Shown piece after piece: positions 1-26,097 of a DNA stretch of 37,554 bases (the first letter of the stretch is position 1; the number at the start of each line of letters is the position of its first letter). The stretch lies in IMG/VR virus record IMGVR_UViG_2695420600_000017. The stretch is one strand, 5' to 3'. The translations under genes were made by a program, and so were the position numbers. Source of the stretch: a virus. Its lineage: Duplodnaviria; Heunggongvirae; Uroviricota; Caudoviricetes. The notes under the pieces are model-generated. The model was not told where the DNA came from. It searched no databases and saw only the letters and a list, made by a program, of their open reading frames with translations.

Positions 1-330
1 GAACGTCTGGTTCAGCAGATTTGGCGCAACTGGCAGATTGTGGTTCGAGTTCGTAGTCGCTCTGAACTTGCGTTTCTGCTTACAGCGTAGCCTTAGCTCC
101 TTACGAAGACGTGCCAGTCGGTCACGACCAACGATGATGCCATTCTCTGCCAGCTCCGTCTGGAGCCGCCGGGTTCCATATGTTTCGCGAGTGCGGATAT
201 GTGCCACCTTAATCTCCAGTTTTAGCCGCTCATCACTTTGTTTTCTGTCTGAGGGTTCATGCTGTACCCAGTTGTAATAACCGCTCCTGGATACACCAAA
301 TACCTGACACATATAGCGCGGCGATTTTTT
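1..330 (-). mobile_element. IS3-family insertion sequence fragment (transposase OrfB-region N-terminal part, runs off window start; no orfA upstream)
   Basis: Hand translation of minus strand from ATG at 310-312 gives MCQVFGVSRSGYYNWVQHEPSDRKQSDERLKLEIKVAHIRTRETYGTRRLQTELAENGIIVGRDRLARLRKELRL..., the typical IS3-family OrfB N-terminal region before the DDE domain. An A7 run sits just upstream (about 324-331). Family-level resemblance ends near 313-330, where the prophage end repeats begin. Confidence 0.55.
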
Positions 331-439
331 TGATACCGATTTGCATTTCATTTGATACCGCTGAAAAACGCCGATACGCAACTTATTTGATACTAAATCG
401 GCGCTTTTCTTTTGAGTTTTAGAATGAGTTTTTAAGCGT
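331..439. repeat. Prophage right-end region with three direct TTGATAC(CG) repeats (candidate transposase-binding sites)
   Basis: TTGATACCG at 330-338 and 352-360, TTGATAC at 387-393; the second repeat TGATACCGCTGAAAAACGCC resembles the recalled Mu right-end sequence TGAAGCGGCGCACGAAAAACGC. Lies between the mom stop (440) and the IS fragment. Exact terminus not determined. Confidence 0.4.
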
Positions 440-1180
440 TCATTCACTCTCTTTCAAACCAGTTTTAACTGTTTGTGGTTTTGGGTAAGGCTGGACTTTG
501 AATAGCTTTGTGTTAAGGCGTTTTCTGGCTCTCTTGTCCAGAAACCGGATGTAACGAAACTGACGGAATTTATGAACACTGGCTCTGTCGATATTAGCCC
601 GCAGATGTTCACCTCGCTGTCCTCCTCGTTTGATTGCATTCTTGCAAATCTCGTGATACCACTCGCCATCAAGTTCATAGAATGTTGTTTCATGACTGCC
701 TACATAATCAAAATTGCTTGCCTGGTACACGACACCAAGACAGCCACAACGCTCATCTGCAAACGACTGAACCCACTGCACCTGCGGATAAAGTTGTCTG
801 ATTAGTTTGAGCGCGTAACTGATTGCCCTTGATTCGGAGTTTCTCGGCATACAGTCATGCAGCCATAACCGGTTAAGCTCCATATATTCGCGGTTCTGCG
901 TGCCAGTTACGACGCGTGCACCATTGTTTGGATTAAGGGCATAACCCCATTGCATTACGCCAACCAGCTCCCGTTCTGAAAATATGCCCAGATGAAGGTA
1001 GGAATTATTTACGAAACGATGGCTGTAATGTTTATTGACGACGACCAGCCGGGCCAGCCAGCAACTTATTGTCTCAACCCGTAACTCACGGGAGCCATAA
1101 CCGACGATATTGTCGTTATAGTGAATAAGTTCAGGCGTGCTGATGATACGGGATGTAACTTGCTTTCTGTTCCCCACGAC
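440..1180 (-). CDS. mom: Mom-like DNA modification protein; start uncertain (GTG at 1178-1180 chosen, ORF is open up to 1372)
   Basis: Long ORF overlapping and directly downstream of a com-like zinc-finger gene, at the extreme right end of a Mu-like prophage, as in Mu. No in-frame ATG near the com stop, so a non-ATG or internal start is inferred. Confidence 0.55.
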
Positions 1181-1331
1181 AGGATTTCCTTGTGTATGTG
1201 GGGTGCTCTGTGGCGCTCTGAGATGTGATTTGATTGAGGGTTTTACAGCGCGGACATTTGACTTCCAGATAACTGAAGCTGGCTCGTGCCAGTAGCTTGT
1301 TACAATGTCGGCACCGTATGTTTCGATACAT
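1131..1331 (-). CDS. com: Com-like zinc-finger translational activator of mom
   Basis: [34 protein letters not shown]... carries the CxxC...CxxC pattern and resembles recalled Mu Com (MKSIRCKNCNKLLFKA...RCPRCK). AGGAGG about 10 nt upstream of the ATG at 1329-1331. The track ORF begins at a TTG further upstream. Confidence 0.7.
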
Positions 1332-1470
1332 GGCCGCATAACCTCCTGCTTTGTTGTTGATATCTTTATCACTCAATCGATCGACAAAAACGATCGATTT
1401 GATTTATTTAATTGATACAACAAATAACACGAAATGTCATTAGCGAAAATTTATGAGTTTGATCACTAAT
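1332..1470 (-). promoter_or_regulatory. Putative com-mom promoter/operator region with GATC (Dam) sites
   Basis: GATC at about 1379-1382 and 1392-1395 (within TCGATCGA and CGATCG palindromes) and again at about 1461-1464, upstream of com. In Mu the mom promoter is controlled through clustered GATC sites. Promoter elements themselves not identified. Confidence 0.3.
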
Positions 1471-1587
1471 TTTAAACGGTGCTGTAACGCATAAGTGCTG
1501 AATGATTGTACATTTGAATACCGCAAAGCAAACAAATCAACTAATTTATAGAAGTCAATTGGTTAATTGCCAGCGTAAGAGGCTGCT

Positions 1588-1881
1588 ATGGACAATCATG
1601 TAACGACGAGAAATCGAAAAATGATTGAAAATGCGGAAATCTATAATGATTATTTTTCCGATTATTCAGATGCCTGCAAATACAGTTCGAGTGCGGGAGA
1701 GTTCATATGCTTCAACTTTTTTATTAAATCTTATGTTTTTCCTCCACAGCAAGAAGATGGAGGTGTGCCACCTCCTGAAATCACTTTGCACCGTATAGCC
1801 TCCGTCTCAATGATGGAGCAACAGGCTAATGAGCTGTATAGCATTCTGGGAACGATTCTACAAAAGCGTGAATCGGACTAA
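1588..1881 (+). CDS. Hypothetical protein (97 aa), plus-strand gene in AT-rich accessory region
   Basis: ORF preceded by GAGG 8-10 nt upstream of the ATG and about 200 bp of AT-rich sequence; no recognisable motif. Confidence 0.35.
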   Translation: MDNHVTTRNRKMIENAEIYNDYFSDYSDACKYSSSAGEFICFNFFIKSYVFPPQQEDGGVPPPEITLHRIASVSMMEQQANELYSILGTILQKRESD

Positions 1882-2048
1882 TGATACCGGTTCATTTGCC
1901 TGCCCGGATGGGGAAGCAGGATTGACTGCTCCATAAGCAGCTATATTTCTGAATACGAAATACTATCCAGCGATTACATATGGCTGGATAGCGGCAAAGA
2001 TGTTTTCATTAGTGTCAAACCGGCAGAGGACACCACCGGTTTGTATTG

Positions 2049-2303
2049 TTACATCATGGTACTGTCAGTTCCGGGCTGAGCCGGGTCTGGTTGCTCTGGC
2101 TGCGCGTCGGTTTTCGGCTCATTATCAGCATCACTGGCCGCAACTGCTGGCCCAATAAGTTTTGCCAGCACTTCATCAACGTAAGTGTCGATTTGTGCCT
2201 CAAAATCCTTGCGGACCTGCGCTTTCAGTAATTTATTTACTTCACCGGAATACAGTGCCTGTTTTACCAGGACTTCAGTGACGGTGCCTTTAATCTCTGG
2301 CAT
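2049..2303 (-). CDS. Hypothetical protein (84 aa), helical N-terminus with acidic Pro/Gln-rich tail
   Basis: Strong SD (AAGGAGG) 7 nt upstream of the ATG; an inverted repeat AAACCGG...CCGGTTT at about 2027-2052 overlaps the stop region. Confidence 0.5.
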   Translation of the reverse strand: MPEIKGTVTEVLVKQALYSGEVNKLLKAQVRKDFEAQIDTYVDEVLAKLIGPAVAASDADNEPKTDAQPEQPDPAQPGTDSTMM

Positions 2304-2338
2304 GTATATCCTCCTTATGTGGGAATACAGCCCTGCAA

Positions 2339-2521
2339 TCAGGGCTGGGTCGGGTCTTTTGGGAGCGGAGTTGCCTGCGCTGTTTTACTGAGCTTTTCAG
2401 CTGCTGCGTCATCAATTTTGCGGCGAACATAATTTCTGATGGCCTTATAACCACCGCTCACCAGATATAACGCACTGACCACAGTGCAGAAATAAAGCAG
2501 CATCGTATGAACAAATGTCAT
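2339..2521 (-). CDS. Small membrane protein (60 aa, one predicted TM helix)
   Basis: N-terminal hydrophobic stretch LLYFCTVVSALYLVSGG followed by a basic/charged tail; lies 35 bp upstream of the 84-aa gene on the same strand. Confidence 0.4.
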   Translation of the reverse strand: MTFVHTMLLYFCTVVSALYLVSGGYKAIRNYVRRKIDDAAAEKLSKTAQATPLPKDPTQP

Positions 2522-2686
2522 ATAACCTTACCTTTGATATTGACTACAGAAACAGTTTTCAGCTAAAAAGTAACCGCGTACATAATGGTCTTCTTTGTCA
2601 GAGGTTGTAGCTTTCCTTAATGGGTTTGGAATATCACCCGCCAGTCAACAAATGGCTCTTTGACCGGCGGGATTTTTTTATCCTGC

Positions 2687-4741
2687 TTACGCGTTATTCA
2701 CTTCCACCACGATACTGTCAATCAGTACCGGGTAAGTCGCATTTTTAGTGATATCGGTCACGCGCAACTTGTCTGCCGTAAACGTGCCGACCGGAGACTG
2801 CGACAGCATGAATGGTGTCCCGTCCTTACCATCAATGACCGGCGTCACCTCAATACTGTTGTTACCGGCAAAACGGAAGCCCAGCGTATGCCATTCGTTA
2901 TTAAATGCGCCGAATGACCCCAGCTTCGTGTTCTGCGCCGTGTTTCCTTTGTGATACATCACGTTAAGGTCTGTGGCATCGCTCTGTACGTAGAACGATG
3001 CCAGCAGGTTATGACCGGCATTTCCTTCCAGAGTAACCCCTTGCGGCAGGGCAGAAACCGGCCAGTACAGCGCCAGTGCGTACTGATTAGCCGTAAGCGC
3101 GCCATCGAGTTTAAAACGACAACTGACAAGACCACCTTTACCCAGCAGGTCCGCACCATTACCAGCATCATGCTCAAGGTACCAGGGGGCTCTTCCTGTT
3201 TCCTTGGTCAGTTTCATTGCCTTACCCCCGCTAGCTCCGGCATCATCCACGATTTGAGCCTTGCCACCTCCGGCAGCCCAACCCTGTGGTGTCAACCGTC
3301 CTTCAGACTCAGATGCCCGGTAAGCAAATAGCGTACTCATCGTCGTGGTGTCTGCGGGTGGCGTGGACGGTTTTGATGGTGTATCAGGTGACGGCTTCTC
3401 ATCCGGTGGTGTCACGGTCTGCCCGCGCATCAGTTCAGCCGTGCGCCCTGCATGGAGCATAATAGCTGAGGCCAGACGGTCTGAAATGACGCCCCTGCGT
3501 GCCCATGAGCTGAAATGGCTGTCACGCTGTGTCGAAACAAAACTGCCCTGGGTTCGGGATGCTGCACCGTAATACCCGACAGCCACAATATCCGGGTCTT
3601 CCGCCGGAGCATTCGTTGGCGTGCTCTGTCCATTCTCATCCGTCAGGAACGGTACAAAGAAAATTTTCTGTGCTTCCTTGCCTTTGTAGCCACCGTATAC
3701 TGCCTCATATTTATCGGTGCCAGCGTTTTTCCAGTAATACGTGGTATCACCGCAAATCCACGGCACCGTGGTGGCATTTCCACTCACGCACTGCGCAGCA
3801 AGCGGAGCCAGGTCAGTTCTGAACTGCTGAACCATGGCCGTGAATAAACTATTATGCTGCTGGCTTCCTGAGGCAAGGTCTGCCTCTCCCTGCATCCAGA
3901 CCACAGCCAGAAGTTTGTTTTTCGGGTTTTTCGCCAGCGCGACTTTGGTGCGGCTTACCAGGTCCTGATACAGAGGTTTACCGGCCCCCCAGCGTGAAGA
4001 ATCAGCGGAAGCACCGCTGGCCTCACTGAATGAGCCGTCGGCTCCAGTGGTGAATGCTGACCCGCCACGACAACAGGGCACCAGAAGTATCCCCGCATTC
4101 TGTGGGATATAGGGAAGCAGTTTTTTGGCAATATGCAACCCCTGACCGACAGTCCCGTACTGGCCTTTTGCCAGATCAGCTTTCGGGTGGTTTATCCCGC
4201 TCATATCCTGAACATCATGCAGGCAGTGGTCTGCCGGAATGATGTCGTTGTATGTACACGACGTACCGTTGGGCGTTACCGTACTGCGGCGTGCCAGTTG
4301 CTTAATGCGTGGGTCCGGGCGGTCAAACGAATCCGGTAACGGCAGCCCCTCGCCGTAGGCCATGCCATTTGACTGACCCGCGAGAATGACAACAAAGTAA
4401 TATTCCGGCTCTGAACTGCTGCCATTCGTGCTACCGGAAGGCCCGGCGTTATCCGGTGCATTCCAGTCGGAGGGCGTGAGCGTTCCGGCCACGTCAGATG
4501 TGATTGGAATGATGCCAGTCACGCCTGAACTGGTGATTTCTGCACTGGGATTACCGGATACCGGCATTACCCATAATGGCTCTTTCGTGCTGAAGCGGAT
4601 CACGCAGTCTGCGAAGGTGATCCCCCCTTTATTACCCGAAGGGCGGAAAGGGCTTTCAATAAATGCCACCGTGCCACCGGCAACCTTGACTGAAAACTCT
4701 CCGGGCATGGCGGAGAGCATTTTCCACTTGGAGTCTGACAT
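2687..4741 (-). CDS. Prophage sialate O-acetylesterase, NanS-p-like (SGNH/SASA esterase domain with N- and C-terminal accessory domains)
   Basis: 684-aa ORF with VVILAGQSNGMAYGEG (GQSN catalytic-serine block) and VVWMQGEAD (QGE(S/A)D block), characteristic of sialate 9-O-acetylesterases. Sits just beyond the tail-fibre genes, as nanS-p genes do in E. coli prophages. Family assignment is from motifs, not a search. Confidence 0.7.
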   Translation of the reverse strand: MSDSKWKMLSAMPGEFSVKVAGGTVAFIESPFRPSGNKGGITFADCVIRFSTKEPLWVMPVSGNPSAEITSSGVTGIIPITSDVAGTLTPSDWNAPDNAGPSGSTNGSSSEPEYYFVVILAGQSNGMAYGEGLPLPDSFDRPDPRIKQLARRSTVTPNGTSCTYNDIIPADHCLHDVQDMSGINHPKADLAKGQYGTVGQGLHIAKKLLPYIPQNAGILLVPCCRGGSAFTTGADGSFSEASGASADSSRWGAGKPLYQDLVSRTKVALAKNPKNKLLAVVWMQGEADLASGSQQHNSLFTAMVQQFRTDLAPLAAQCVSGNATTVPWICGDTTYYWKNAGTDKYEAVYGGYKGKEAQKIFFVPFLTDENGQSTPTNAPAEDPDIVAVGYYGAASRTQGSFVSTQRDSHFSSWARRGVISDRLASAIMLHAGRTAELMRGQTVTPPDEKPSPDTPSKPSTPPADTTTMSTLFAYRASESEGRLTPQGWAAGGGKAQIVDDAGASGGKAMKLTKETGRAPWYLEHDAGNGADLLGKGGLVSCRFKLDGALTANQYALALYWPVSALPQGVTLEGNAGHNLLASFYVQSDATDLNVMYHKGNTAQNTKLGSFGAFNNEWHTLGFRFAGNNSIEVTPVIDGKDGTPFMLSQSPVGTFTADKLRVTDITKNATYPVLIDSIVVEVNNA

Positions 4742-5045
4742 CGTCTTTTCTGCCTGTTTCTGAATTAAACAGAGTCAGAATAACAACCGCTGATAAATAT
4801 GTGTTTTGCGGAAATTCAAAAAAAGCATCACGGTACTTTTTGTGACGGAGCCGGTTAGGCAGGAACATAACGACAAAGGATGGACAGGCCAATACGATAA
4901 CCGCATATTACCGGCTTATAATTGATTTAACGATTCATGACGCTGCGGTCAGCATCTGAAAATATGCGTTATTTCAGAAACCCCTTGCCTGTATATGGCG
5001 ATATTATTATTCCTGTTTTTATCATTGATTTACATGGTGATGTTT

Positions 5046-5567
5046 ATGCAACTGATTAATGTTAAACGATATTACCCGGAACAAAAACCCTTTGGTAATG
5101 ATGTACAGTATTTTCAAAGTGAAGATGGTAAGGATTTCTATGAGTCCCTGCCATTATTCACCAAAAAATATAAACTTTGCATAACCCCTGACAGCGGTGT
5201 TATCTGCTCAATATCACAGGATGCTTCGGCGCTGTATCCTGCGGGTTTTTCCGTTGTTGAGACAGACGAATTACCTGAAGGTACTGATATTTCAGGTAAC
5301 TGGAAGTTTGATAATGGTGTCATCTCACAACTCCCGGTTAACTATACCAAAAAAGCGGAAGCACTGCGCCAGTCATATCTTAATCAGGCATATGAAAAGA
5401 TTAATGACTGGAGAACTGAGTTACAGCTGGGCACGATTAGTGATGAAAACAGAGCTGCGCTTACACGATGGATGAAATACATCAGTCAGGTGAAAAAAAT
5501 GGAACTACCAGCGATTAAAAACAAAGCTGAATTTGACGCCATTAAATGGCCGGAGAAGCCTGAATAA
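5046..5567 (+). CDS. Tail fibre assembly protein (Mu U/U'-like, Tfa family), opposite strand to the late operon
   Basis: DISGNWKFDNGV and LQLGTISDENRAALTRWMKYISQV resemble recalled Mu U (DISGKWMFKDGVV, LRLGIISDENKQKLTEWM). Start chosen at the ATG with GGTGATG upstream; the track ORF starts at 4995. Confidence 0.7.
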   Translation: MQLINVKRYYPEQKPFGNDVQYFQSEDGKDFYESLPLFTKKYKLCITPDSGVICSISQDASALYPAGFSVVETDELPEGTDISGNWKFDNGVISQLPVNYTKKAEALRQSYLNQAYEKINDWRTELQLGTISDENRAALTRWMKYISQVKKMELPAIKNKAEFDAIKWPEKPE

Positions 5568-5570
5568 CAT

Positions 5571-5600
5571 AAAGGGTGCTTATCGCACCCTTTTCCTTTA
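5571..5600. terminator. Bidirectional intrinsic terminator between convergent tfa (+) and S (-)
   Basis: AAAGGGTGC-TTATC-GCACCCTTT hairpin followed by a T-rich tract on both strands, in the 34-bp gap between the two stop codons. Confidence 0.5.
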
Positions 5601-5601
5601 A

Positions 5602-6513
5602 TCAGACGGATGAAACTGTGCGCCAGGCATTACCGATATATATCTGCACCGGACGGTAATAAACGCCTCCGATATTATCGGCTGAACTTTTCCCGGTATC
5701 CTGCACGTTAATACCTGAAAGCATACAACCAGAAGGTGCACCATAACTCCAGGACATTTCATTACCTCCGGGTGAATGGTAACTCTGGGCACCAAGCTGA
5801 ACGTTGCTAACGTATTTGTTATCAGCAGTAGCTTCAGTCATACCGGAGGTAATGTATATGTCCTGCGTCCCGTCAAAAGGAACGCCATTAATATTTCTTG
5901 GGGTGGAGAGTTTATTCGCGGCAACGGCGGTGCCGTCCGATGGCAGAGCATTCGCCGCCTTATTCACCGTTTCCCGTAAACCGACGTTATCGATAAAAGC
6001 CCCTTTATCCGGAATGTCTGCGCCGTTCTGCTCCCTGCGCAGGTAACGGTTATCACCTTCGCTTTTGCTGTAAACATCCAGATTATTACGGGCGGTTCCC
6101 TTATTCTCCAGGTCGGCGAGATTCTGATCCTTCGCCAGGGCATTAACGTCACCGGGACCAAGACTGTTTTTTGTGGCAAGCGTCCCCAGACCAAGATAAC
6201 CACGGGCCAGACGCTGGGCCTCCGCACCGGCATCAGCAATTTCTTTCAGGTTATTTTTCCGGGAAAAGGCATTCGCAGCGATAATGGCTTTAATGGACAG
6301 CGTAAGCTGGTTTAACTGCGCCTTATCCGGCTGAATACTGGCTTCAGCCAGAATATTCAGCAGTTCGGCCTGGAGAATATTCAGCCAGTCCTGACCAATC
6401 CAGCTGATACCTTTTTGTCCGTCACCTTCGGTAAACCAGGTGGTGGTATTACTCTGCGCCGGTGCCAGCGCAGGCATATTCGCCACGCCGGAATTATTAT
6501 CAACATGAAACAT
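5602..6513 (-). CDS. S: Tail fibre protein (Mu S-like; constant N-terminal part plus short variable C-terminal part)
   Basis: Follows the R-like gene in Mu order. 303 aa versus about 500 in Mu. A gix-like site lies at about codon 176, the position of the Sc/Sv junction in Mu. Confidence 0.7.
   Translation of the reverse strand: MFHVDNNSGVANMPALAPAQSNTTTWFTEGDGQKGISWIGQDWLNILQAELLNILAEASIQPDKAQLNQLTLSIKAIIAANAFSRKNNLKEIADAGAEAQRLARGYLGLGTLATKNSLGPGDVNALAKDQNLADLENKGTARNNLDVYSKSEGDNRYLRREQNGADIPDKGAFIDNVGLRETVNKAANALPSDGTAVAANKLSTPRNINGVPFDGTQDIYITSGMTEATADNKYVSNVQLGAQSYHSPGGNEMSWSYGAPSGCMLSGINVQDTGKSSADNIGGVYYRPVQIYIGNAWRTVSSV
5971..5996. other. gix-like (Gin/Hin/Cin/Pin-family) crossover-site sequence inside the tail-fibre gene
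   Basis: TTCCCGTAAACCGACGTTATCGATAA matches the recalled Mu gix site TTCCTGTAAACCGAGGTTTTGGATAA at 22 of 26 positions, including the central GA. Confidence 0.45.
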
Positions 6514-7073
6514 TAAATAGTCTCCTCTTCATGGCTGTTTGCATAAACGTAAATAAACGTCTGCCATGCAGGCTTATAACGGTTCAGAATACATTCCAGC
6601 GCACTGCCTTCATAAATACGCAGCGGCGTGAGAATATCATCCAGCACATTCATATTCCGGTAGCCGGTTTCACTGTTAATCGTGACAATACTGACCCACT
6701 GCGAATCCGGTGAGGGCTGAATGTCAATCTGATAACCAAACTCCGCCGCAAACCGGATATAAAATTCACGGTTCAGCGAGGGCTTCATCCGGTATTTATT
6801 GCCGGCATAACGCTGTCGCTCCGTGAGGGTGGCTCCGGCCATATCACACTCGGGAAGCCCGAGATAACGCTCCCAGTCTTCCAGCAGCAGGCGCGACGTG
6901 TCAGGGAAACGCTCGGCAAGCAGCTGTTTACCCGTCCAGGATACACGCGCTGTCGAATGACTGAGGCCCAGACATAATGATGCCAGTACGGATGACGGAC
7001 GCTTGTCCCATGCCAGCCCGTCAGGCAGTAACTGCAACAGGGCGCGCTGATGTGGGGTCAGGGTTACAGCCAT
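6513..7073 (-). CDS. Tail fibre-associated baseplate protein (Mu gp48/R-like)
   Basis: 186 aa, located between the baseplate J-like gene and the tail fibre gene as in Mu. Confidence 0.65.
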   Translation of the reverse strand: MAVTLTPHQRALLQLLPDGLAWDKRPSSVLASLCLGLSHSTARVSWTGKQLLAERFPDTSRLLLEDWERYLGLPECDMAGATLTERQRYAGNKYRMKPSLNREFYIRFAAEFGYQIDIQPSPDSQWVSIVTINSETGYRNMNVLDDILTPLRIYEGSALECILNRYKPAWQTFIYVYANSHEEETI

Positions 7074-8146
7074 GTGATTTCTCCTACCGTCAGCAGCTCA
7101 CTGTCTCCCGCCTGAACTGACGTCAGCGGACTGCGCACTTCAAAATCCTCCAGATTTTTCACCCCCGCCACAGCACGCCAGAAAGACGACGGCAGAACCA
7201 GACCGCCGGGCCGGGATTCGTTGTATAACAGGTCGGTCAGCGCCTGTTTTACGGCCGCCTGATTCTCCGGTGTTTTCGGGATGATCCTGATGCTGAAGGG
7301 CACCGGCTTATTGGTCAGTTTAAACACGGTCACCGTCGGCCCCAGAGGCTGTCCGACAGGCTGGCCGGTCGCCGGATCATCATGACTGCGGATATAATCC
7401 GCCACCCGCTGAACATCACCGTCACCGGGGAAAATATCCGGGTTATTATCCTGAACAAACGTTACCCCCACGCTGCCCGCCTGCGGCCATTCCGGGCGGC
7501 ACCATGCCCGCGTCACGCCCGGCACTTCACGCGCCCAGCGTTCAAAATCATACTGCGTGCCGCCGGACGGTGGATTCTGCACCCGGAAAACCAGACGGGA
7601 AAGCAGCTCCGGCACGGTTTCCACATCCGCACCACCGGTGATCCCCGTTCCTGTCACCGTGGCCGTCTGGTTGATCCCCGCCTGCGGTGTGATAAATGTC
7701 AGTTTTGTCCCTGCCGGGGCATTCCCCGCACGACCGGCACTTTCGGCTTCCACACTGACATTCAGCGTACCGGCCTTACCGGTCAGTGAGGTGGTGATAC
7801 GGTAAACCACGCCATCACTTCGCTGGAGAAGCACACCTTCCTTGATCCCCGCATCCGTGGTCAGCATCAGCTGAACCGGCCCGTCCCCCCGAGAGGCAGG
7901 CTTACGCATGACGCCCCAGAATGCACAGTGTTTCAGCAGTTCGGCTTCATCGGCTTCGGTCGGGATGATCTGACGCGCAATCCAGGCCAGATGCTCATGC
8001 TCCTGAGCAGATAACCCTGCCTGAGCGTAAGCAATGGCATTCAGGGTGGTTTCATTCACACCCGGCTGCGAGCCGGGCAGGCGCTGGCTGATATCCTGCT
8101 GTGTCTGCGTGATTAACTGTGCCAGCGGTAAAGGCTGATAAGGCAT
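7064..8146 (-). CDS. Baseplate J-like protein (Mu gp47/W-like)
   Basis: 360 aa; position and size as Mu gp47; overlapping start/stop coupling with neighbours. Confidence 0.75.
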   Translation of the reverse strand: MPYQPLPLAQLITQTQQDISQRLPGSQPGVNETTLNAIAYAQAGLSAQEHEHLAWIARQIIPTEADEAELLKHCAFWGVMRKPASRGDGPVQLMLTTDAGIKEGVLLQRSDGVVYRITTSLTGKAGTLNVSVEAESAGRAGNAPAGTKLTFITPQAGINQTATVTGTGITGGADVETVPELLSRLVFRVQNPPSGGTQYDFERWAREVPGVTRAWCRPEWPQAGSVGVTFVQDNNPDIFPGDGDVQRVADYIRSHDDPATGQPVGQPLGPTVTVFKLTNKPVPFSIRIIPKTPENQAAVKQALTDLLYNESRPGGLVLPSSFWRAVAGVKNLEDFEVRSPLTSVQAGDSELLTVGEITWL

Positions 8147-8583
8147 TACTCCCCCTTAAGATCAGCATAAAAAATCATGGGCCTCACTGAACCATCAGGC
8201 AGGGTTATGCGCACCGAAAGCGCCAGCCGCGCGTGCCCCACACGTTCTGCATGACAGACCACGGATGACGCCACGCCATCCTGACTGAGCCAGCCCAGCG
8301 CCTCATCCGCATAGGCACGGGCACGGCTTATCACGGAGGCCAGCGTTTTTTCCCGGCGGAGAAGCCACAGACGGGAGCCAATGGGACGCGGGCGAAAACT
8401 GTCTCCCCACCATCCCCGGCGGTCACGCGTACCGTCAGGGATTTCATCCGATGCCAGCGCCCGGCGGTCAGTAAACAGCGAAATCAGAACGGCCGTCAGC
8501 AGACTGTCATCCGTCAGCAGGTCGGCACCGTTCAGTTGCAGCGAACCGCACCCCTGATCCCATACAATTGCAATATCAGCCAT
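8146..8583 (-). CDS. Baseplate protein (Mu gp46/V-like)
   Basis: Start set at the ATG at 8581-8583 (MADIAIVWDQG...), just upstream of the stop of the preceding gene; 145 aa. The track ORF is extended upstream to 8727. Confidence 0.65.
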   Translation of the reverse strand: MADIAIVWDQGCGSLQLNGADLLTDDSLLTAVLISLFTDRRALASDEIPDGTRDRRGWWGDSFRPRPIGSRLWLLRREKTLASVISRARAYADEALGWLSQDGVASSVVCHAERVGHARLALSVRITLPDGSVRPMIFYADLKGE

Positions 8584-9190
8584 TCTCCGGCGCTCCTGTC
8601 TTACTGCCTTTGCCGTTATCCTGATGCACATGGCCGGAATAGGTGATCCCGGCAATAACGGCATCAGACATCGTGAACAGCCCGTCTGATTTACCTGTAC
8701 CATCAAGCACGAAATTACCCTTAACATGCAGGTTTTTATCCACCGTCACATTGCCCGTAAAGGTGGCCTCCGGCGTATCCACCCGCATCCCCTCATCGGC
8801 GTAAATCTCCAGCATTTTGCATGTCACAATAATGCGACCATCCTTTGTTAACCGTATCCGGTGCCCCTCATGGTGATACACCCCCGTATCTCCGGCTGTG
8901 AGTCCGGTCGGGCGGCTGCGCCGGTCTTCCACCACAAGCACCACAGTCTGATCCCGCTGTCCGCCCAGACAGGCAAAAAAGGTTTCCGCACCCGGCAGGG
9001 GAACGCTGATCTGCCCGTACTGCTGGGGACGCTCCACATCATCAAAGGTTTCGCCGTCCATGCCGGTGAGCTGCACATTCTGCATTTTCAGTTCGTCATG
9101 TGTGCCGGTCAGAACGCCCCGGCCAAACAACAGGCGAATACCGCGCGTTACCGGGGCAATCAGGCGGCTGAACACTTCATCATTCATCAA
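8576..9190 (-). CDS. Baseplate assembly/spike protein (Mu gp45/Q-like)
   Basis: 204 aa; position and size as Mu gp45. Confidence 0.7.
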   Translation of the reverse strand: MMNDEVFSRLIAPVTRGIRLLFGRGVLTGTHDELKMQNVQLTGMDGETFDDVERPQQYGQISVPLPGAETFFACLGGQRDQTVVLVVEDRRSRPTGLTAGDTGVYHHEGHRIRLTKDGRIIVTCKMLEIYADEGMRVDTPEATFTGNVTVDKNLHVKGNFVLDGTGKSDGLFTMSDAVIAGITYSGHVHQDNGKGSKTGAPENG

Positions 9191-10304
9191 AGCTGATCCC
9201 CTGTTTTTTCATCTGCTGGCGAATAAAGGCATCAACATCGTCACCGGAACCACCCCGGCCCTTACTGTCCGGCTCTGCCGGAACGATAAAGCCGTCACGC
9301 GGTGCCAGTACCAGCCGGGTGACTTCCCCGTTATGTTCATCAAGTAAAAACTCTACCTGACAGACCAGCAGTTCAGTCTGTTCTATACCGAAACGCAGGG
9401 CTGAAACACCGGTCAGCAGATTGACATCCCATAACCGGCCATCATCCCGGAACCAGCCACGCACGGTGGCAGAAAACCGTTCTGAACGGGCAATCGCACG
9501 GCGCATTTCACGCAGGGCACGCTGCCGTGCACCGGTGGTGTCTGTCTGTTGATCGGCGAGGATGATTTTCGGCCGGTAGCGGCCGATCTGCTCATCACTG
9601 ATGACGCCCACAGGTGCTGCCAGACGGGCGGCGGATTCGCTGTCTCCCCGTTTGCCACCACCGCGCCCGTGTCCCCGGACACGGTATTCGCTGTATCGTC
9701 CTCGCCAGTCCGTGTTGTAATCGGCATCAAGCAGGTTATCTCCCAGCACCAGTCTGTCCGTCTGCTGGCTTCCTGCCTGGGTGAACACCAGATCGCCGTC
9801 AGCATTACTGGTCACCAGCACCCCGCGATGCCGGGCAGCACGGGTCAGCGCATCCGCCACGGTTTCTGAGTTTTCCAGCGTAAAAGAGCTGAAGGGGCGT
9901 GCAGCCGTGTCGTCGTTAACCTGCCAGCGCACGGCTATCCCGAAGGGCGCACATAAATCTGCGGCAATCTGTGCCAGCGTCCGGTTGCGCCACTGGCTGC
10001 CGGGATGGATGGCGGCACAGTCCACCAGGTCGCCGGTTTTATCCCGACCGCTGATGCTGATCTGATGACGGGTTGCACTGATCCGCTGACTGACCTGATC
10101 CAGCCAGCCACTGATGACCGTCTGCCCGTTAATTCTGAGCGTCAGGGACTGACCGGTTCGCAGGGCTGAGGGGATGCGCTCACCGGGCAGCATCAGCCCC
10201 AGTTCAAACGACCCGGCCAGATGCTCCAGCGAGCGACGGACGCTGACCGTCAGCCAGCCGGAAAAAATACTGCCACCGATATACAGTTCAATCCTGCTGC
10301 TCAC
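9180..10304 (-). CDS. Baseplate hub/tail protein (Mu gp44/P-like)
   Basis: 374 aa; position and size as Mu gp44. Confidence 0.75.
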   Translation of the reverse strand: MSSRIELYIGGSIFSGWLTVSVRRSLEHLAGSFELGLMLPGERIPSALRTGQSLTLRINGQTVISGWLDQVSQRISATRHQISISGRDKTGDLVDCAAIHPGSQWRNRTLAQIAADLCAPFGIAVRWQVNDDTAARPFSSFTLENSETVADALTRAARHRGVLVTSNADGDLVFTQAGSQQTDRLVLGDNLLDADYNTDWRGRYSEYRVRGHGRGGGKRGDSESAARLAAPVGVISDEQIGRYRPKIILADQQTDTTGARQRALREMRRAIARSERFSATVRGWFRDDGRLWDVNLLTGVSALRFGIEQTELLVCQVEFLLDEHNGEVTRLVLAPRDGFIVPAEPDSKGRGGSGDDVDAFIRQQMKKQGISFDE

Positions 10305-11646
10305 TGATCACCTCCACGCTGCGGCCACCCGGAACAAAAACCGGATCGGGGATATTGTTTCTGCGGACAAAATACTGCCAGCGACTGCTGTTGCCGGTGG
10401 CACGGTACAGCGTGACCAGTGCCGGTTCGGTGGTGCGAACCATGACCTGAAAAGCACCGGGAAGATGCACGCTCCGTGTGGTTAAATCTTCTGTCAGCGC
10501 AAGCCCTGCATCACGTAATGCAAGGGCAGTCCCGGTATAGCCCTGTGCGGACAGATCCAGCACCTGTTGTTCCATGGCATCGCTCAAATCCCGGTTGATA
10601 CGCTGCACATCAGCAGAACTTTCCAGCCAGGCCAGTCCGCCCGAACGGTCAGTATCCTGAACGTGCGTCGTATTCTGCCGGATGACCTGATCCAGCAGTT
10701 TTCCGAGCGTCTGTGCCTGCGACACCAGGGTTGCACTCTGCATCACGCTCCGCAGCAGACGGATATTTTTCTGTGCCGCAGGCGTCAGGCCAATCAGGCG
10801 CTGTGGATCATCCTGTTCGCTGAGGGTGTAACGCAGAGAGGAAAGTGTGCGGTACAGCTGCGGCATGGCCTGCTCTGCTATGCTGTCACGGTTTGTGGTC
10901 AGGCTGCCGGACGGCGTTCCGGCTTTTCCGGTCAGAGACAGGGAAGGATCGTCGGGCAGCCCGGTCAGCACGGCAAACATTCCGGCCAGCGATTCAGCCA
11001 TGCGACGGGGCGCATTAATCAGGGCGGCGGCATTGCCTTTCAGGGCAGTAAAACTGGCCGTAAAGGCACTGATATCCTGCACAATCCCCATCCCCGAAAC
11101 GGCATTCTCCAGTGCATCAATCTTATCGCTGATGGTGTCGGTCATGGCCTGTACATCATGCAGACCGTCTGAAATCACCGTCCAGCCGTCTGAAAGCGTG
11201 TTAAACAGCTGATTCATTGCTGAGCCGCTTTTCTGCTCCAGCGCAGCTGCCGTATCTTCTGCCACCGCAGGGGCGGTATCGTCACTGGCGGGGATCACGT
11301 TGATCGTGAACTCAACCGTTCCCTGCTCGCTGGCGTTATAACGGCTTTCAAAGCTGTTTATCAGCACGTTTAACGTGCCGTAATCCGGGTGCATCAGTTC
11401 ACCGGCACCGGGTGCACGCAGCGCATCACGCAGGCGGCTTCGCTGTGTCTGAAGATCGTCTCCGGTCACCAGAACCGTGAATGTGAACTCCGGGAGTTTT
11501 GGCCCCAGATCATCCGCACCGCCGCTTTCACGCAGTGGGTATTCACGGCGCACAATGTTACGTCCGCCCCGTTCCCGCTGCTCCTGATAAACCAGGAACG
11601 GTACGCCACGAAAGGAGCCACGCCCCGGCGTGTCAGTAGAGGCCAT
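10288..11646 (-). CDS. DNA circularisation protein N-like (Mu gp43)
   Basis: 452 aa immediately after the tape measure gene, as in Mu. Confidence 0.7.
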   Translation of the reverse strand: MASTDTPGRGSFRGVPFLVYQEQRERGGRNIVRREYPLRESGGADDLGPKLPEFTFTVLVTGDDLQTQRSRLRDALRAPGAGELMHPDYGTLNVLINSFESRYNASEQGTVEFTINVIPASDDTAPAVAEDTAAALEQKSGSAMNQLFNTLSDGWTVISDGLHDVQAMTDTISDKIDALENAVSGMGIVQDISAFTASFTALKGNAAALINAPRRMAESLAGMFAVLTGLPDDPSLSLTGKAGTPSGSLTTNRDSIAEQAMPQLYRTLSSLRYTLSEQDDPQRLIGLTPAAQKNIRLLRSVMQSATLVSQAQTLGKLLDQVIRQNTTHVQDTDRSGGLAWLESSADVQRINRDLSDAMEQQVLDLSAQGYTGTALALRDAGLALTEDLTTRSVHLPGAFQVMVRTTEPALVTLYRATGNSSRWQYFVRRNNIPDPVFVPGGRSVEVISEQQD

Positions 11647-13690
11647 AGTTCCCTCCGTTCCAGACGTTCACATCCAGGCCATGCTGTGCGGTATCATCCA
11701 CATCAATACTGCGCGCCCGCCAGCCTTCAGGGGCCACAAGCTCCACCCGTGCGGCGGTTTTCGCGGTGGCCTGTCCGCCGTTTTCGTCACTGCCGCCACG
11801 CAGTTTCTGCCAGGCCTGCGTCAGCCAGCCCCCCAGATAATCACCGAGATAGCTGCCCACCGTGGAACCAATGGCAACCCCGACCGGACCAGCAGCCGCC
11901 CCCAGCGCGCCACCGGCGATACTTCCGGCAAGGGAACCCACGGCACCGGCTTTATCGGCTGCACTGGCGCTGCTGTCCAGCAGTACAGGAGCCGCCATGG
12001 CACCGGCCCACAGGGCACCACCACCCAGCCGACCGGCACCACGGAACAGCCCGGCAAAACGCCCCAGCCCCATGCGGTTTCCGGCCGCCGTTAGCAGACC
12101 ACCGGCACGGCTCATCATACGACCGAAGAAGCCCTGTTTACCGGCACTCTCCGCCAGTTGCTCACCGGCAGTCACGACGGTCGTGACACCCCGTCCACGT
12201 CCGGGGCCGCGTTTTTTACGGCCGCGCACGGTTTTGCCGTCACCGCTGACCACCACATCCCCGCCACCTGAGGCCAGGCCACCCGCAGGCCAGTTGGTGA
12301 CCAGCACGGGCTGAACGGCAGCCGGATTTACCCCGGTAAGGAAATTCAGGAACCGGCCAGCGCGTCCGGGCTGCGTTCCCGGTACAGTGGTCTGCGGTTT
12401 GCGGAAGGGCGACGTCAGCACGGAGGTCATCGCCATGCCATAGCGTAAGGGGGTTGCGCCAAGACGTAATGCCCCCGTCCCCGCAAACCTGAGCACCTTC
12501 AGCGCACGGGAGGCGAGATACATATACATCAGGTACTTTGCGGCGGTCTGCGCACCCTGACCAATGCGATCCAGCGCATCGCCATAACCGGCGTCGCGCA
12601 GTGCCTGAAGCGTTTCCCTGACTTTCTGAATGACCCGGTAAAAGCCGGTCGCAGCGTCTCTGGCATACTCAAATCCCTGATTCAGAGCTGAGGCCGTCTG
12701 TGTGGCCAGCTTATCCTGTAAGCCGCTTTTCTGTGCCGCATCGGCATAATCCAGGAAGCCTTTCAGGCTCTTTTTCAGGCTGTCAAACGGTCCCTTTGCC
12801 ATCACCTCGCGGGCAAATCCGTCCCAGACGTCGCCCATCATGGACGTCATTCCCGTCCAGGAATTCATGGCGTTTTTCTGGGCACCTTTTGCCTGTTCGG
12901 CCATCACCTGAAATAACAGGCGAATGCTGTCCGGCCCCAGTTTTCCTTTTTCGCCTTTCTCACGGATGATCTTCTGGTTTACGCCCAGCTTATCGGCCAG
13001 TAACTGGTAAACGTTAATCCCGTATCCGGTCAGAATATTGGCGTCCGCTGCCTGGATACTCTGGCGGGCAAACATCTGTTTGAGTTGCAGGGACGCACCC
13101 TGTGCATCTGACAGTGACCAGCCGTGATAGCCGCCCTGATCCTGAAGCATGGTAATAAAGCGACGGGCTTCCCTGTCACTCATGCCAAACCCGCGACTGG
13201 AGGCGTATTCCTGCATAACCCCCGCCAGCCCCCAGGTGGTGTCTTTGGCGTTCTGTACTGCCCAGGCTTTCACTGCTTCCGTTTTTGCCGTATCGCCATG
13301 ATTAATGGCGTTGAGACGCAGAATATAGTTCTCCATCTCTGCGGCCGGGCGGATAAAGGCTTTATTAAAACCGTAGACCGCAGCCCCTCCCGCCAGCATC
13401 CCGTAAAGGTTGCTTATCCGCCCGATGGTGCCGGTAATGCTGCCCTGCAGGCGGTCAAAATCTGACGTTACCGTGCGGATGCTGCCACGAACACCGGCAA
13501 GCGTTCGCTGCATACGGGAGCCGACAAGTTCTGTTTCCTGACCGGCCCGGCGGGCTGCATTTCCAAGACCACCCAGGCCTGTCCTGCCGGAACGGGAGAA
13601 CGCCCCCAGCTCCTGTGACCACTGGCGGGATTTGGCGGAAATATTGCCGAGTAAATCGACAATCAGGGAGGCTTTCAGGTTTTTTGCCAT
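11633..13690 (-). CDS. Tail tape measure protein (Mu gp42-like)
   Basis: 685 aa with Gly/Ala-rich repetitive C-terminal half; position between chaperone-like gp41 and N. Confidence 0.85.
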   Translation of the reverse strand: MAKNLKASLIVDLLGNISAKSRQWSQELGAFSRSGRTGLGGLGNAARRAGQETELVGSRMQRTLAGVRGSIRTVTSDFDRLQGSITGTIGRISNLYGMLAGGAAVYGFNKAFIRPAAEMENYILRLNAINHGDTAKTEAVKAWAVQNAKDTTWGLAGVMQEYASSRGFGMSDREARRFITMLQDQGGYHGWSLSDAQGASLQLKQMFARQSIQAADANILTGYGINVYQLLADKLGVNQKIIREKGEKGKLGPDSIRLLFQVMAEQAKGAQKNAMNSWTGMTSMMGDVWDGFAREVMAKGPFDSLKKSLKGFLDYADAAQKSGLQDKLATQTASALNQGFEYARDAATGFYRVIQKVRETLQALRDAGYGDALDRIGQGAQTAAKYLMYMYLASRALKVLRFAGTGALRLGATPLRYGMAMTSVLTSPFRKPQTTVPGTQPGRAGRFLNFLTGVNPAAVQPVLVTNWPAGGLASGGGDVVVSGDGKTVRGRKKRGPGRGRGVTTVVTAGEQLAESAGKQGFFGRMMSRAGGLLTAAGNRMGLGRFAGLFRGAGRLGGGALWAGAMAAPVLLDSSASAADKAGAVGSLAGSIAGGALGAAAGPVGVAIGSTVGSYLGDYLGGWLTQAWQKLRGGSDENGGQATAKTAARVELVAPEGWRARSIDVDDTAQHGLDVNVWNGGNYGLY

Positions 13691-13693
13691 GGG

Positions 13694-13888
13694 TTACTGC
13701 TTCGTTCTGAGAATTTTTTCGGTCTGTCGGCAGTGCCGGTAAAGCTGCGATAAAGGGAGGTTAAGCGCCCACTCCGGGCCGCTTTTTGTCACCATCCCCA
13801 GCACAATTGCGGCTTCTTCAATCTGATCCCGGCACTGCATCTGGTCGCCCCCGTTCAGCGACCAGCTTTCCTGCCATCGCGGAATCAA
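13694..13888 (-). CDS. Small ORF (64 aa) overlapping the 3' end of the gp41-like gene
   Basis: Fills the gap between the gp41-like gene and the tape measure gene; could be a separate small gene. Coding status uncertain. Confidence 0.3.
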   Translation of the reverse strand: MIPRWQESWSLNGGDQMQCRDQIEEAAIVLGMVTKSGPEWALNLPLSQLYRHCRQTEKILRTKQ

Positions 13889-14297
13889 GCAGGCTTACCG
13901 CCGCCATCAGACGGGAGAGATCGCGCTCGCTGAGCTGTCCGATCTGACGCGGAGACAATGGCCCCTCAATCTGGCCAACAGCGGCAATCTGACGGCGCAG
14001 CAGTGCAATGCCGCGCAGTGCCGGCGAGGCTATCAGAACCGGGCCGCCATTTCGGGTTTCCATAAGACGCTCGGCCTCGGTTTCCGCGTCAATGCTGTCT
14101 TTCGCCGTCAGTTCGCGGAAGGTGACGCGGTATTCACGGGATTCCCCGAACGGCAGACCGTCGAGCAGATCCACATAGCCGTTCGCCAGCTGTTCAGCCA
14201 GCCCGGCGGTGCGGGGATCGCCGTCTTCAAGTGCATCCCGGATAGCCTCCATCACGGCCTCGTCAGAAACCGCCGTTTTTTTCTTACGTGTGGTCAT
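13818..14297 (-). CDS. Tail assembly protein (Mu gp41-like)
   Basis: 159 aa between the tail tube and tape measure genes. Confidence 0.6.
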   Translation of the reverse strand: MTTRKKKTAVSDEAVMEAIRDALEDGDPRTAGLAEQLANGYVDLLDGLPFGESREYRVTFRELTAKDSIDAETEAERLMETRNGGPVLIASPALRGIALLRRQIAAVGQIEGPLSPRQIGQLSERDLSRLMAAVSLLDSAMAGKLVAERGRPDAVPGSD

Positions 14298-14311
14298 TGC
14301 ATTTTTCCTGA

Positions 14312-14677
14312 TTACTGGACACGGGTACTGGTGGCGCTGGCGAACTTCGCGGAGATATCACCGCCACCGTCAAGCGAGGCCGGTTCACTGCTCCAGGCCT
14401 TCGTCATCATATGGACTTCACCGGTATCGGCCACGAACTCAATCGTGACCGCAGTCCAGGTGTTGATTTCATCGGCAGCCGGTGAACCTTCTCCGCCAGC
14501 CGGAAATTTACAGTCCAGCGTCGCCTCACGGGGTTTCTCACGATAGCCATAGACTTTCGCGCCTTTCACCACTTCACGCTCAAAGCCGGACGGGGAGAAC
14601 GTGGCTCCCTCAAGGGTGGCGTACTCCTGTCCGTTCACACGGATGGTGGCCGTGCCCTGATGCTGTTTTCCGCTCAT
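14312..14677 (-). CDS. Tail tube protein (Mu gp40/M-like)
   Basis: 121 aa directly downstream of the sheath gene. Confidence 0.75.
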   Translation of the reverse strand: MSGKQHQGTATIRVNGQEYATLEGATFSPSGFEREVVKGAKVYGYREKPREATLDCKFPAGGEGSPAADEINTWTAVTIEFVADTGEVHMMTKAWSSEPASLDGGGDISAKFASATSTRVQ

Positions 14678-14685
14678 GCCTTACC

Positions 14686-16188
14686 TCACAAAATGAAACG
14701 GATCTGCGCGGCCATGAAGCGGAACTGGTTAACCAGATCCGGTGTACACATCACATCCAGACGGTTACGGTCTTTTGTGTTGCGCTCCACGAGCAGATTC
14801 TTTTTAAAGGTGTCCAGATTTTCGACCAGCCCGAGTTCCACCCATTCTTCCCCCAGTGCAATCAGCTGGAGCGTCATAATCTCCGGCGTCACGATATTCT
14901 GACCGGGCCGGACGGGAGTACCGTTATCGGCCAGTTTGTGGCGCGGGAAACGCTGCGTGATAAAGGTGCGCAGGGAATAACGCAGATATGACAGGGTGTA
15001 GATGGTTTCTACATCCAGATAGCTGGGATCGCTTTCGCCGTATGCATTCTGACGGTACATCGTCACCTGACGTTCAATCTGCACCACATCAGCGGCCGCA
15101 ACGGTCACCGTGGACATGCCGGTATAAAGCAGGCTGTTTCGCTCTTCCCGCGTCAGACGATCCGGTGCTTCAGGTGCCATACGGGCAGGCAGCGCCAGTG
15201 TCTGTAATGGTCGGGCCGGATCCGTTGACAGGGAGGGCGCACAGACCGCACAAATGGAGGCAGCCCAGACATAATCCGGCTCTGGTGCTTTAGGAATAGA
15301 AGTGCAGGTAAACAGGAAGTCATTACGGGATTCACCAAAACTGGTTGCCGTACCGAAGGTGCCGGTATGCGCCATCCAGACCATACCGTCCGACATTTTT
15401 ACCGGTCCCCAGCGTTTCAGCAGTTCATCCGCCAGAATTTTGAGATTTGCCGCATCCTTATAGGGCATGACGATGTAGTTGTACTGACGATTCCCCATCC
15501 CTGAGACGCTACGGGTGATATCGGGGTTTGTTGCCTTCTGTGTTGGCGCGACGAGCTCCAGCGTAAGACCGGCCGGTGTAGTTTCACCGTCATAATAGTT
15601 CACCCGTAAATCATGAGCTGAGCATTCACCGATAAAGCGGGCGTTAACCCCCATGCTGCCTTTAAGTCCTTCAGCATTATCACCACTGACTTCAGCTGCG
15701 ATAGCAGTGAATGGCGCATCAGTGTCAGCGTTAATGACCTTAGCCAGCTCTTCCACAAGCTCTTTACCTTTTTTCCCCTTACTGACGGGCAGGAGGTAAC
15801 GGCGACCGCCGATGTAAACACTTAACACCCCGTCTGCCAATGCTGTTCCAATGATATTCATCACGCATGCCCTGGACTGACCTGTTCCAGCCCCCTGTGC
15901 AATGGCATATAACTCTGTGTCAGGGTTAATGGCGATAAATTCCTCTACCATCAGTGCAATCATGGAACCTCGCCCCCAGAGTTCTCTTGCTTGTGAAGCT
16001 CGGGTAATACGTACTGGTACATCAAGCTGACCGCGCCCCTGAATGGTGGTGTCTTTCATTGCAGCCTGACCAAACAACAGTACCGCCTGACGCTGTGGTG
16101 GAGTGCCGGTCACGGCCATTGAATTATTGATTTCAATCTGTACCAGCGGAATGCGATTGTTATCGCCGATATAATCAAAGTTAATCAT
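14686..16188 (-). CDS. Contractile tail sheath protein (Mu gp39/L-like)
   Basis: 500 aa; size and position as the Mu sheath protein. Confidence 0.85.
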   Translation of the reverse strand: MINFDYIGDNNRIPLVQIEINNSMAVTGTPPQRQAVLLFGQAAMKDTTIQGRGQLDVPVRITRASQARELWGRGSMIALMVEEFIAINPDTELYAIAQGAGTGQSRACVMNIIGTALADGVLSVYIGGRRYLLPVSKGKKGKELVEELAKVINADTDAPFTAIAAEVSGDNAEGLKGSMGVNARFIGECSAHDLRVNYYDGETTPAGLTLELVAPTQKATNPDITRSVSGMGNRQYNYIVMPYKDAANLKILADELLKRWGPVKMSDGMVWMAHTGTFGTATSFGESRNDFLFTCTSIPKAPEPDYVWAASICAVCAPSLSTDPARPLQTLALPARMAPEAPDRLTREERNSLLYTGMSTVTVAAADVVQIERQVTMYRQNAYGESDPSYLDVETIYTLSYLRYSLRTFITQRFPRHKLADNGTPVRPGQNIVTPEIMTLQLIALGEEWVELGLVENLDTFKKNLLVERNTKDRNRLDVMCTPDLVNQFRFMAAQIRFIL

Positions 16189-16466
16189 CAGGACGTCCCC
16201 TTATCTGATGCTGCGGTTTTTTCAGCCACCGCCGCAGTTTTTTCTGCTGCCGCTCCCGCTGGTTTTGCCGCCGCGCCGGTATTACCTGTTGTGGCAGCCG
16301 GGGCAGGCTCCTCCGTTTTATCCACCACAATGACGTCACCATCATTAAGACGGCGGCACCAGAACGGAGTGAAGGGTTTCTCTTCACCGTCCTGTGAGAG
16401 CGGAGTCATCGTGTCGGGATCGCGAATCAGGCATCCCGGCGCAGGTTTAATAAAAATGGTTGTCAT
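16188..16466 (-). CDS. Small tail/head-completion protein (Mu gp38-like), Ala/Pro/Lys-rich C-terminus
   Basis: 92 aa ORF coupled to the sheath gene start. Confidence 0.55.
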   Translation of the reverse strand: MTTIFIKPAPGCLIRDPDTMTPLSQDGEEKPFTPFWCRRLNDGDVIVVDKTEEPAPAATTGNTGAAAKPAGAAAEKTAAVAEKTAASDKGTS

Positions 16467-16469
16467 CTG

Positions 16470-17449: not shown

Positions 17450-17799
17450 GCGCGAGCCTTTTTCGCCTGTCTGGCGTTATTGCCGGTCTTTTTCCGGGGA
17501 GCATCCTGTCCGGCTTCGGCTAAATCTGCACCGGTCTCTGCATGAACCACACCCGCCACGGCTCCCGCATCATCACCAGGCGTCTGTAGTATTCGTACAG
17601 TGAGGCATGGCTCCGCTTCCAGTCGGGCAAGCTGCTCCGGGGTGACGTCAACCTGCTGGCGTCCCCGCATGAACAGGAACCCCGCACGACGAAACTGCGC
17701 ACGACTGCAACGCACTTCTGCCAGTACCGTGACAGGACTGTCACCACTGACCTGAAGGCCTGAATCATCTGTTGCTGCCACAGTGTGATGTTCATTCAT
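17446..17799 (-). CDS. Hypothetical head protein (Mu gp35-like)
   Basis: 117 aa ORF between the major capsid gene and the gp36-like gene. Confidence 0.5.
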   Translation of the reverse strand: MNEHHTVAATDDSGLQVSGDSPVTVLAEVRCSRAQFRRAGFLFMRGRQQVDVTPEQLARLEAEPCLTVRILQTPGDDAGAVAGVVHAETGADLAEAGQDAPRKKTGNNARQAKKARA

Positions 17800-25503: not shown

Positions 25504-25513
25504 GATTCACCTC

Positions 25514-26095: not shown

Positions 26096-26097
26096 CG

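Follow-up and report, generated by a model that had tools for sequence, protein, structure and literature searches.

The NanS-p sialate O-acetylesterases have been discussed almost solely as accessory genes of lambdoid Shiga toxin (Stx) phages, and the lambdoid enzymes have been shown by experiment to be active esterases that enable growth on Neu5,9Ac2 and attack mucin glycans (review, PMC8065619). The chromosomal NanS of Escherichia coli operates with a Ser19-His301 dyad that includes no catalytic Asp, its oxyanion-hole residue being Gln18 (PMC9063846). For vb_24B_21 of phage phi24B, residues Y510, Y515, Y540 and F611 have been proposed to bind carbohydrate (PMC10462455), and phi24B gp84 has been described as a virion component that is abundant and undergoes processing, with a DUF1737 domain that forms hexamers on the capsid hexons (bioRxiv 10.64898/2026.04.10.717836). 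Here we analyze an esterase of this family, 684 amino acids (aa) in length, that is encoded by a second, unrelated type of phage in which the module is fixed, namely a Mu-like prophage contained in IMG/VR record IMGVR_UViG_2695420600_000017, a stretch of 37,554 nucleotides from a virus of the Caudoviricetes that is hereinafter called the window.

The window esterase resembles phi24B gp84 in the Gln-Ser pair, the His, the four proposed sugar-binding residues and the Pro-rich interdomain linkers, and genes for DUF1378 and DUF826 proteins lie downstream in the window just as they do in phi24B and other lambdoid phages. The two proteins differ at the N-terminus, which is a DUF1737 domain in gp84 and an unrelated beta domain of approximately 80 aa in the window protein, and the SSP motifs that have been proposed as self-processing sites of gp84 are absent from the window esterase. 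The genomic setting differs as well: lambdoid NanS-p genes are located between stx/Q and the lysis genes, whereas the window gene lies between a remnant of the DNA invertase gene gin and com-mom, in a Mu-like genome of the myovirus type. A counterpart with the same architecture, the same post-invertase slot and the same downstream genes is ECs_4993 of prophage Sp18 in E. coli O157:H7 strain Sakai, which is 66% identical to the window esterase overall and 60% identical in the N-terminal domain, and which is annotated as a 'hypothetical protein' or a 'DUF6645 domain-containing protein'. The window gene is a variant of the NanS-p family, with the catalytic and lectin features of that family and with neither its DUF1737 domain nor its lambdoid position. 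We consider it very probable that the gene encodes a functional sialate 9-O-acetylesterase and is a fixed member of a three-gene block in the Sp18-type phage lineage of E. coli and Shigella. Because the enzyme family, the likely chemistry and the sequence were already known, this result is incremental; the only new elements are the replacement of DUF1737 by the approximately 80-aa N-terminal domain and the pattern of recombination.

The esterase and its catalytic and lectin domains

The first-pass annotation of the window, made from the letters alone, noted GQSN and QGEAD blocks in the 684-aa reading frame, with extra domains on both sides, and placed the protein among the sialate O-acetylesterases. 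The two blocks are found at aa 122-125 and aa 284-288, additional regions are present both N-terminally (aa 1 to about 110) and C-terminally (about aa 431 to 684), and the assignment to the NanS/NanS-p family is borne out. The profile search that had been suggested as a check gave a match of Pfam SASA to aa 117-312 (E = 1.5e-13) that exceeds the curated cut-off, and E. coli NanS (YjhS, PDB 3pt5) matches aa 110-428 (E = 1.8e-117). In the C-terminal portion, Pfam DUF6645 covers aa 533-650 (E = 7.4e-68), and the NanS-p C-terminal domain in PDB entry 6yp6 matches aa 469-683 (E = 7e-98). These values are far beyond chance, and the esterase observation is confirmed. A Pfam scan of the entire protein down to E ≤ 1 returned nothing besides SASA and DUF6645, and the alignment with PHROG 143 starts no earlier than aa 71. 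Public data contain at least 1000 contigs that encode the exact protein, under the name 'sialate O-acetylesterase' or 'YjhS'.

With respect to the active site, a Ser/His/Asp triad had been anticipated. The Ser and the His are indeed conserved, as Ser124 and His409, whereas the Asp was a wrong expectation, given that enzymes of the NanS type rely on a Ser-His dyad (PMC9063846). Gln123 is the counterpart of Gln18, the oxyanion-hole residue of NanS, and all three residues (Q123, S124 and H409) are invariant across an alignment of 22 homologues, the equivalents in gp84 being Q86, S87 and H373. In the lectin-like domain, Y554, Y559, Y584 and F654 are the counterparts of the four residues proposed for phi24B, with 4/4 conserved. 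The catalytic domain shares 70% identity with that of gp84 and the lectin domain 68.5%, whereas the N-termini are no more alike than noise. Chromosomal NanS has a homologous catalytic domain that is approximately 68% identical and retains the Ser19, His301 and Gln18 equivalents, but it is a single-domain enzyme of the nan regulon, without the N-terminal and lectin domains of the phage protein. The possibility that the window gene is a pseudogene or relic was ruled out by the intact frame, the conserved catalytic residues and a ratio of nonsynonymous to synonymous substitution rates (dN/dS) of about 0.1-0.17.

Gene slot and distribution

In the Sp18-type lineage the genes are arranged in the order gp48, tail fibre, fibre-assembly gene, (S'v, gin), esterase, DUF1378, DUF826, a small open reading frame (ORF), com, and mom or a C5 methyltransferase gene. 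This order is common to JE86-ST02, DLI.5a and the metagenome and draft contigs that carry P0012 and P0023, is present in 34/34 of the IMG/VR loci that were found with the N-terminal domain, and is seen also in Mu-like phages inserted within Stx phages, in O157:H7 PA20 and in strain 2012EL-2448. In Sakai Sp18 the slot corresponds to ECs_4992-4998, where the invertase gene ECs_4992 precedes ECs_4993, which encodes a 'hypothetical protein' of 679 aa. Of 5426 complete E. coli genomes, 229 contain DNA of the baseplate genes gp47-48 of this lineage. The window-type and Sp18-type N-terminal domains are present in 28-32 and 205 genomes, respectively, which means that essentially all members of the lineage carry the esterase. 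The Sp18-type prophage itself occurs in most O157:H7 strains and in roughly 4% of all complete E. coli genomes, and counts of nanS-p alleles that depend on DUF1737 or on lambdoid context miss one copy in strains like Sakai.

The gene had been described as cargo, that is, as a host-adaptation trait carried by a different vehicle. This view does not hold, in that the esterase is a fixed slot gene of essentially all Sp18-type prophages, ECs_4993 included, and the notion of a new vehicle is overstated because the sequence is common in public data, where it has already been assigned to its family. The accompanying statement that the esterase is not a Mu gene is correct: in phage Mu, gin directly precedes com, and although the right end of Mu has gp47, gp48, the fibre and fibre-assembly genes, com and mom in the same order as the window, it lacks the block of about 3.3 kb that consists of the esterase, DUF1378, DUF826 and the small ORF. 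A literature search, with Rangel et al. 2016 outside its reach, returned nothing that links nanS-p or a sialate esterase to Mu-like phages or to DUF6645.

The gene had further been credited with an upstream intergenic region of its own. A non-coding stretch does begin at position 4742, but it is a deletion scar and not a regulatory region that evolved for the esterase. In intact relatives the esterase starts 86-99 base pairs (bp) downstream of gin and in the same orientation; Sp18 retains gin together with the invertible fibre segment, whereas the window phage has lost them, the missing stretch of approximately 975 bp having held the S'v fibre fragment and all but the end of gin. As a consequence of the deletion of most of gin and of S'v, the fibre (host-range) segment is frozen in one orientation. 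The gin-less variant recurs in the public loci L002, L005, L015, L018, L020, L023 and L029-L031.

Proposed function

Given the conservation described above, we propose that the Ser124-His409 dyad, together with the Gln123 oxyanion hole, would catalyze deacetylation in the SGNH-II domain. The 9-O-acetyl groups would come off Neu5,9Ac2, whether free or mucin-bound, with the enzyme guided to its substrate by the lectin domain, in the manner demonstrated for the lambdoid NanS-p enzymes (PMC8065619). Inspection of the N-terminus revealed no signal-like hydrophobic segment and, because the esterase has no signal peptide, it most likely acts extracellularly, after phage-mediated lysis.

Several points weigh against this interpretation. 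The substrate specificity could differ, the lambdoid enzymes that have been tested being about 70% identical in the catalytic domain. A full-length AlphaFold2 model built from the 22-sequence alignment is unusable (mean predicted local distance difference test score, pLDDT, 37.6), so that these two folds, catalytic and lectin, are assigned through sequence identity to the solved structures 3pt5 and 6yp6. A sigma-70 scan of the minus strand between 4742 and 5000 detected no convincing promoter, and gin, along with any promoter it carried, has been deleted upstream of the window esterase. Finally, ECs4993 appears in no paper of the literature searched.

The N-terminal domain and the question of virion display

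Three lambdoid copies of the esterase match DUF1737 (PF08410) at aa 3-53, and in precomputed Pfam annotations PF08410 is confined to proteins of 647-650 aa. DUF1737 had been named as a family to look for in the window protein as well, but there is no PF08410 match in it even at E ≤ 1, and ECs_4993 is likewise without one. Similarity to the lambdoid NanS-p proteins starts only within linker 1, at about aa 94-112, and the N-terminal domain that precedes it has no match in Pfam or PHROG. An AlphaFold2 model with pLDDT of approximately 80-88 over aa 11-70 predicts for this domain an all-beta structure with five strands across aa 7-79, in contrast to the DUF1737 fold, which consists of one helix and three strands and assembles into a hexon-binding hexamer. 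The alternative that the domain is a DUF1737 that diverged past recognition was rejected on account of a different length, a different predicted secondary structure and an alignment no better than noise.

An exhaustive HMMER search with the N-terminal domain against 1.84 billion representatives recovered a single genuine relative, the distant P0126, which is 30% identical; another candidate, P0127, was discarded as a low-complexity false positive. P0126 (locus L007, GCA_037428405.1) is a fusion of the N-terminal domain with SASA that is encoded downstream of gin in a Mu-like prophage whose gp47 is just 30% identical, the gene being incomplete where the contig stops within it. A word-indexed protein search returned fragments only, and a scan of the GTDB species-representative genomes found nothing. 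The domain has been seen only in esterases of Mu-like prophages, at three levels of divergence (100%, 60% and 30% identity). Between the window and Sp18 alleles, nonsynonymous divergence (pN) in the domain is 0.23, similar to that in the catalytic domain, against a saturated synonymous divergence (pS) of 0.77. It follows that the domain is selected and functional; it is under purifying selection.

Because DUF1737 has just been reported as a capsid anchor in a lambdoid phage, the replacement of this domain provides a direct test of phage-specific virion anchors. By analogy, the esterase may be displayed on the virion, with the N-terminal domain anchoring the enzyme to a Mu-type capsid or tail, a possibility that we rate as somewhat unlikely and that is compatible with the esterase function proposed above. 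The part of the protein that is replaced is exactly DUF1737, the capsid anchor of gp84 in phi24B, and the replacement is confined to Mu-like prophages, across all three levels of divergence and under purifying selection. Moreover, the N-terminal domain is kept while the rest of the gene swaps with lambdoid copies, and the gene, which nearly all members of the lineage possess, adjoins the tail-fibre module. However, the predicted fold of the domain is uninformative, stand-alone proteins of this type are absent, and phages that share 96-98% identity in their head proteins share just 60% in the N-terminal domain, all of which speaks against display or is at least neutral to it. By extension, and with slightly greater reserve, NanS-p esterases in general might be modular virion-displayed enzymes in which an exchangeable N-terminal anchor, specific to the type of phage, is joined to a body that is shuffled between co-resident prophages; under such a scheme, which we regard as doubtful, DUF1737 may serve phi24B-like podovirus capsids and the approximately 80-aa beta domain may serve Mu-type particles. 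If this were true, Sp18-type phages would bear a mucin-binding, deacetylating decoration on their particles, beyond a gene that benefits the lysogen.

Recombination with lambdoid copies

The history of the gene bears on our preferred interpretation, that of an esterase fixed in the Sp18-type lineage. The body of the window protein, comprising the catalytic and lectin domains, is 87-91% identical to lambdoid copies of the DUF1737 type, and its DNA is approximately 90% identical to one lambdoid prophage copy. Synonymous divergence (dS) of the body is about 0.25-0.30 to the lambdoid copy versus 1.0-2.3 to the Sp18 body, and of the recombination breakpoints one side falls within linker 1 and the other within DUF1378 or close to it. 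The body has been exchanged with lambdoid nanS-p by recombination, while the N-terminal domain stays with the Mu-like backbone. The recent event is a gene conversion of the body and not the acquisition of a gene, and the data point to a fusion with the Mu-type N-terminal domain that is older than the split between the Sp18-type and window-type phages.

In lambdoid phages the block is arranged in the order stx, esterase, DUF1378, DUF826, holin, and the constant co-transfer of DUF1378 and DUF826 with the esterase hints at a functional link, for example in the release of the enzyme. The coincidence of the esterase body, DUF1378 and DUF826 with the block found downstream of stx, the level of DNA identity between the body and its lambdoid copy, and the lack of the gene in Mu would all suit a host-adaptation moron that was recently copied from a lambdoid prophage of enterohaemorrhagic E. 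coli into one transposable phage. We consider this scenario improbable, given that the gene is fixed across the phage lineage as two deeply diverged alleles, that a third, very distant Mu-like prophage has the same fusion of N-terminal domain and esterase, and that the N-terminal domain is not of lambdoid origin. Quite improbable, too, is a modification of receptors, in which O-acetyl groups would be removed from O-antigen or capsule, and not from mucin, for adsorption or to block superinfection: such a role has been raised for NanS-p (PMC8065619), a SASA domain is present in an actinophage minor tail protein (H149) and the gene adjoins the tail-fibre/host-range module, but close homologues act on Neu5,9Ac2 and mucin glycans, the catalytic domain is about 68% identical to that of chromosomal NanS, a sialate esterase, and Pfam and PHROG scans detected no tail-attachment motif.

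Two further sets of records combine a NanS-p-like gene with other phage modules. In the IMG/VR loci L011 and L016, Mu tail genes and a Mu-type esterase with the Mu-type N-terminal domain precede holin and lysozyme genes of lambdoid type; the loci represent either real recombination of Mu-like with lambdoid prophages via the common esterase body or chimeras that arose in assembly across this repeated sequence. The Peduoviridae (P2/P88-like) records L004 (ON470599.1), ON470623.1 and PV468777.1 end in a partial NanS-p-like gene after the lysis genes, which may signify a third type of carrier phage or an artefact of the record ends.

The Mu-like prophage and its other features

Table 1. Positions of the esterase gene, its domains and neighbouring features in the window
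Feature	Position	Strand	Remarks
Sp18-type Mu-like prophage	312..37554	-	right end at 311/312; window stops inside ner; collinear with Sakai Sp18
mom	440..1177	-	Mom family
com	1131..1331	-	Zn-ribbon Com
Small ORF in the DUF826-com interval	1588..1881 (annotated 1621..1881)	+	AT-rich stretch, GC about 0.42-0.45
Stable hairpin after the DUF826 stop	2016..2045	-	without U-tract; z -2.8
DUF826 protein	2049..2303	-	84 aa; last of the three genes that travel together
DUF1378 protein	2339..2521	-	60 aa, small, hydrophobic; follows the esterase in Mu-like and lambdoid prophages
Stable hairpin after the esterase stop	2637..2671	-	without U-tract; z -2.9
Esterase coding sequence	2687..4741	-	684 aa, ATG start; variant of the NanS-p family; same sequence as RefSeq WP_001284083.1
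Lectin-like jelly-roll domain DUF6645, aa 469-684	2690..3337	-	Pfam, 6yp6
Linker 2, aa 431-468	3338..3451	-	Pro/Thr/Ser-rich
Catalytic NanS/SASA domain, aa 113-430	3452..4405	-	70% identical to phi24B gp84
His409 codon	3515..3517	-	catalytic base in RDSH; NanS His301 equivalent, by alignment
Ser124 codon	4370..4372	-	nucleophile in GQSN; NanS Ser19 equivalent, by alignment
Linker 1, aa 81-112	4406..4501	-	Ser/Gly/Pro-rich; low model confidence
N-terminal domain, aa 1-80	4502..4741	-	predicted all-beta small barrel; not DUF1737
gin-esterase spacer	4742..4828	-	86 bp; common to gin-containing relatives
gin remnant	4829..4894	-	last ~22 codons of the DNA invertase; deletion scar
Junction sequence	4895..5023	.	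about 100-130 bp; not in gin-containing relatives; replaces ~975 bp
Tail-fibre assembly gene, U'-like	5046..5567	+	leftover of the invertible fibre segment
Terminator-like hairpin	5571..5593		bidirectional; between the converging fibre gene and fibre-assembly gene
Tail fibre gene	5602..6513	-	

That the esterase resides in a Mu-like phage, as the first-pass annotation had recognized, is supported by Pfam matches to MuA, MuB, Mor, GemA, Com and Mom and by collinearity with Sp18; further Mu-type genes identified by Pfam in the window encode the portal, F, protease I, head protein T, the sheath and gp44-48. Insertion at many unrelated chromosomal sites, as in Mu-like phages, was found: the sites of relatives are citF, ypdB, beside bcsB, hofC and sorM, and the window copy is inserted in an insertion sequence (IS) element. 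Bases 1-311 of the window belong to this multi-copy element, which may be of the IS629/IS3 family; these bases are present in 2876 of the 5426 E. coli genomes and are a 100% match to Stx2a-converting phages. The exact IS/phage junction of the window is absent from all complete genomes in the collection.

Protein identity between the collinear Sp18 and window prophages is 74-99%; by group it is 96-98% for head and packaging proteins and 74-94% for tail proteins, and it is only 66% for the esterase. The window phage is a mosaic relative to Sp18 (window 8146-16188 versus 17843-25255), with gp44, the DNA-circularisation protein, the tape measure and the sheath 74-77% identical. The small ORF at 1588-1881 has no match in Pfam or PHROG and no counterpart in Sakai Sp18, where a different ORF of 154 aa, ECs_4996, is present in its place; the slot between DUF826 and com appears to be variable.

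In JE86-ST05 and JE86-ST02 (H62, H63, H250), two to three copies of the window-type N-terminal domain or prophage are located at separate places in the chromosome, as would be expected if this phage had transposed recently. In the loci L001, L008-L010, L028, L034 and L040, a gene for a C5 DNA methyltransferase of 350 aa takes the place of mom, and com is retained.

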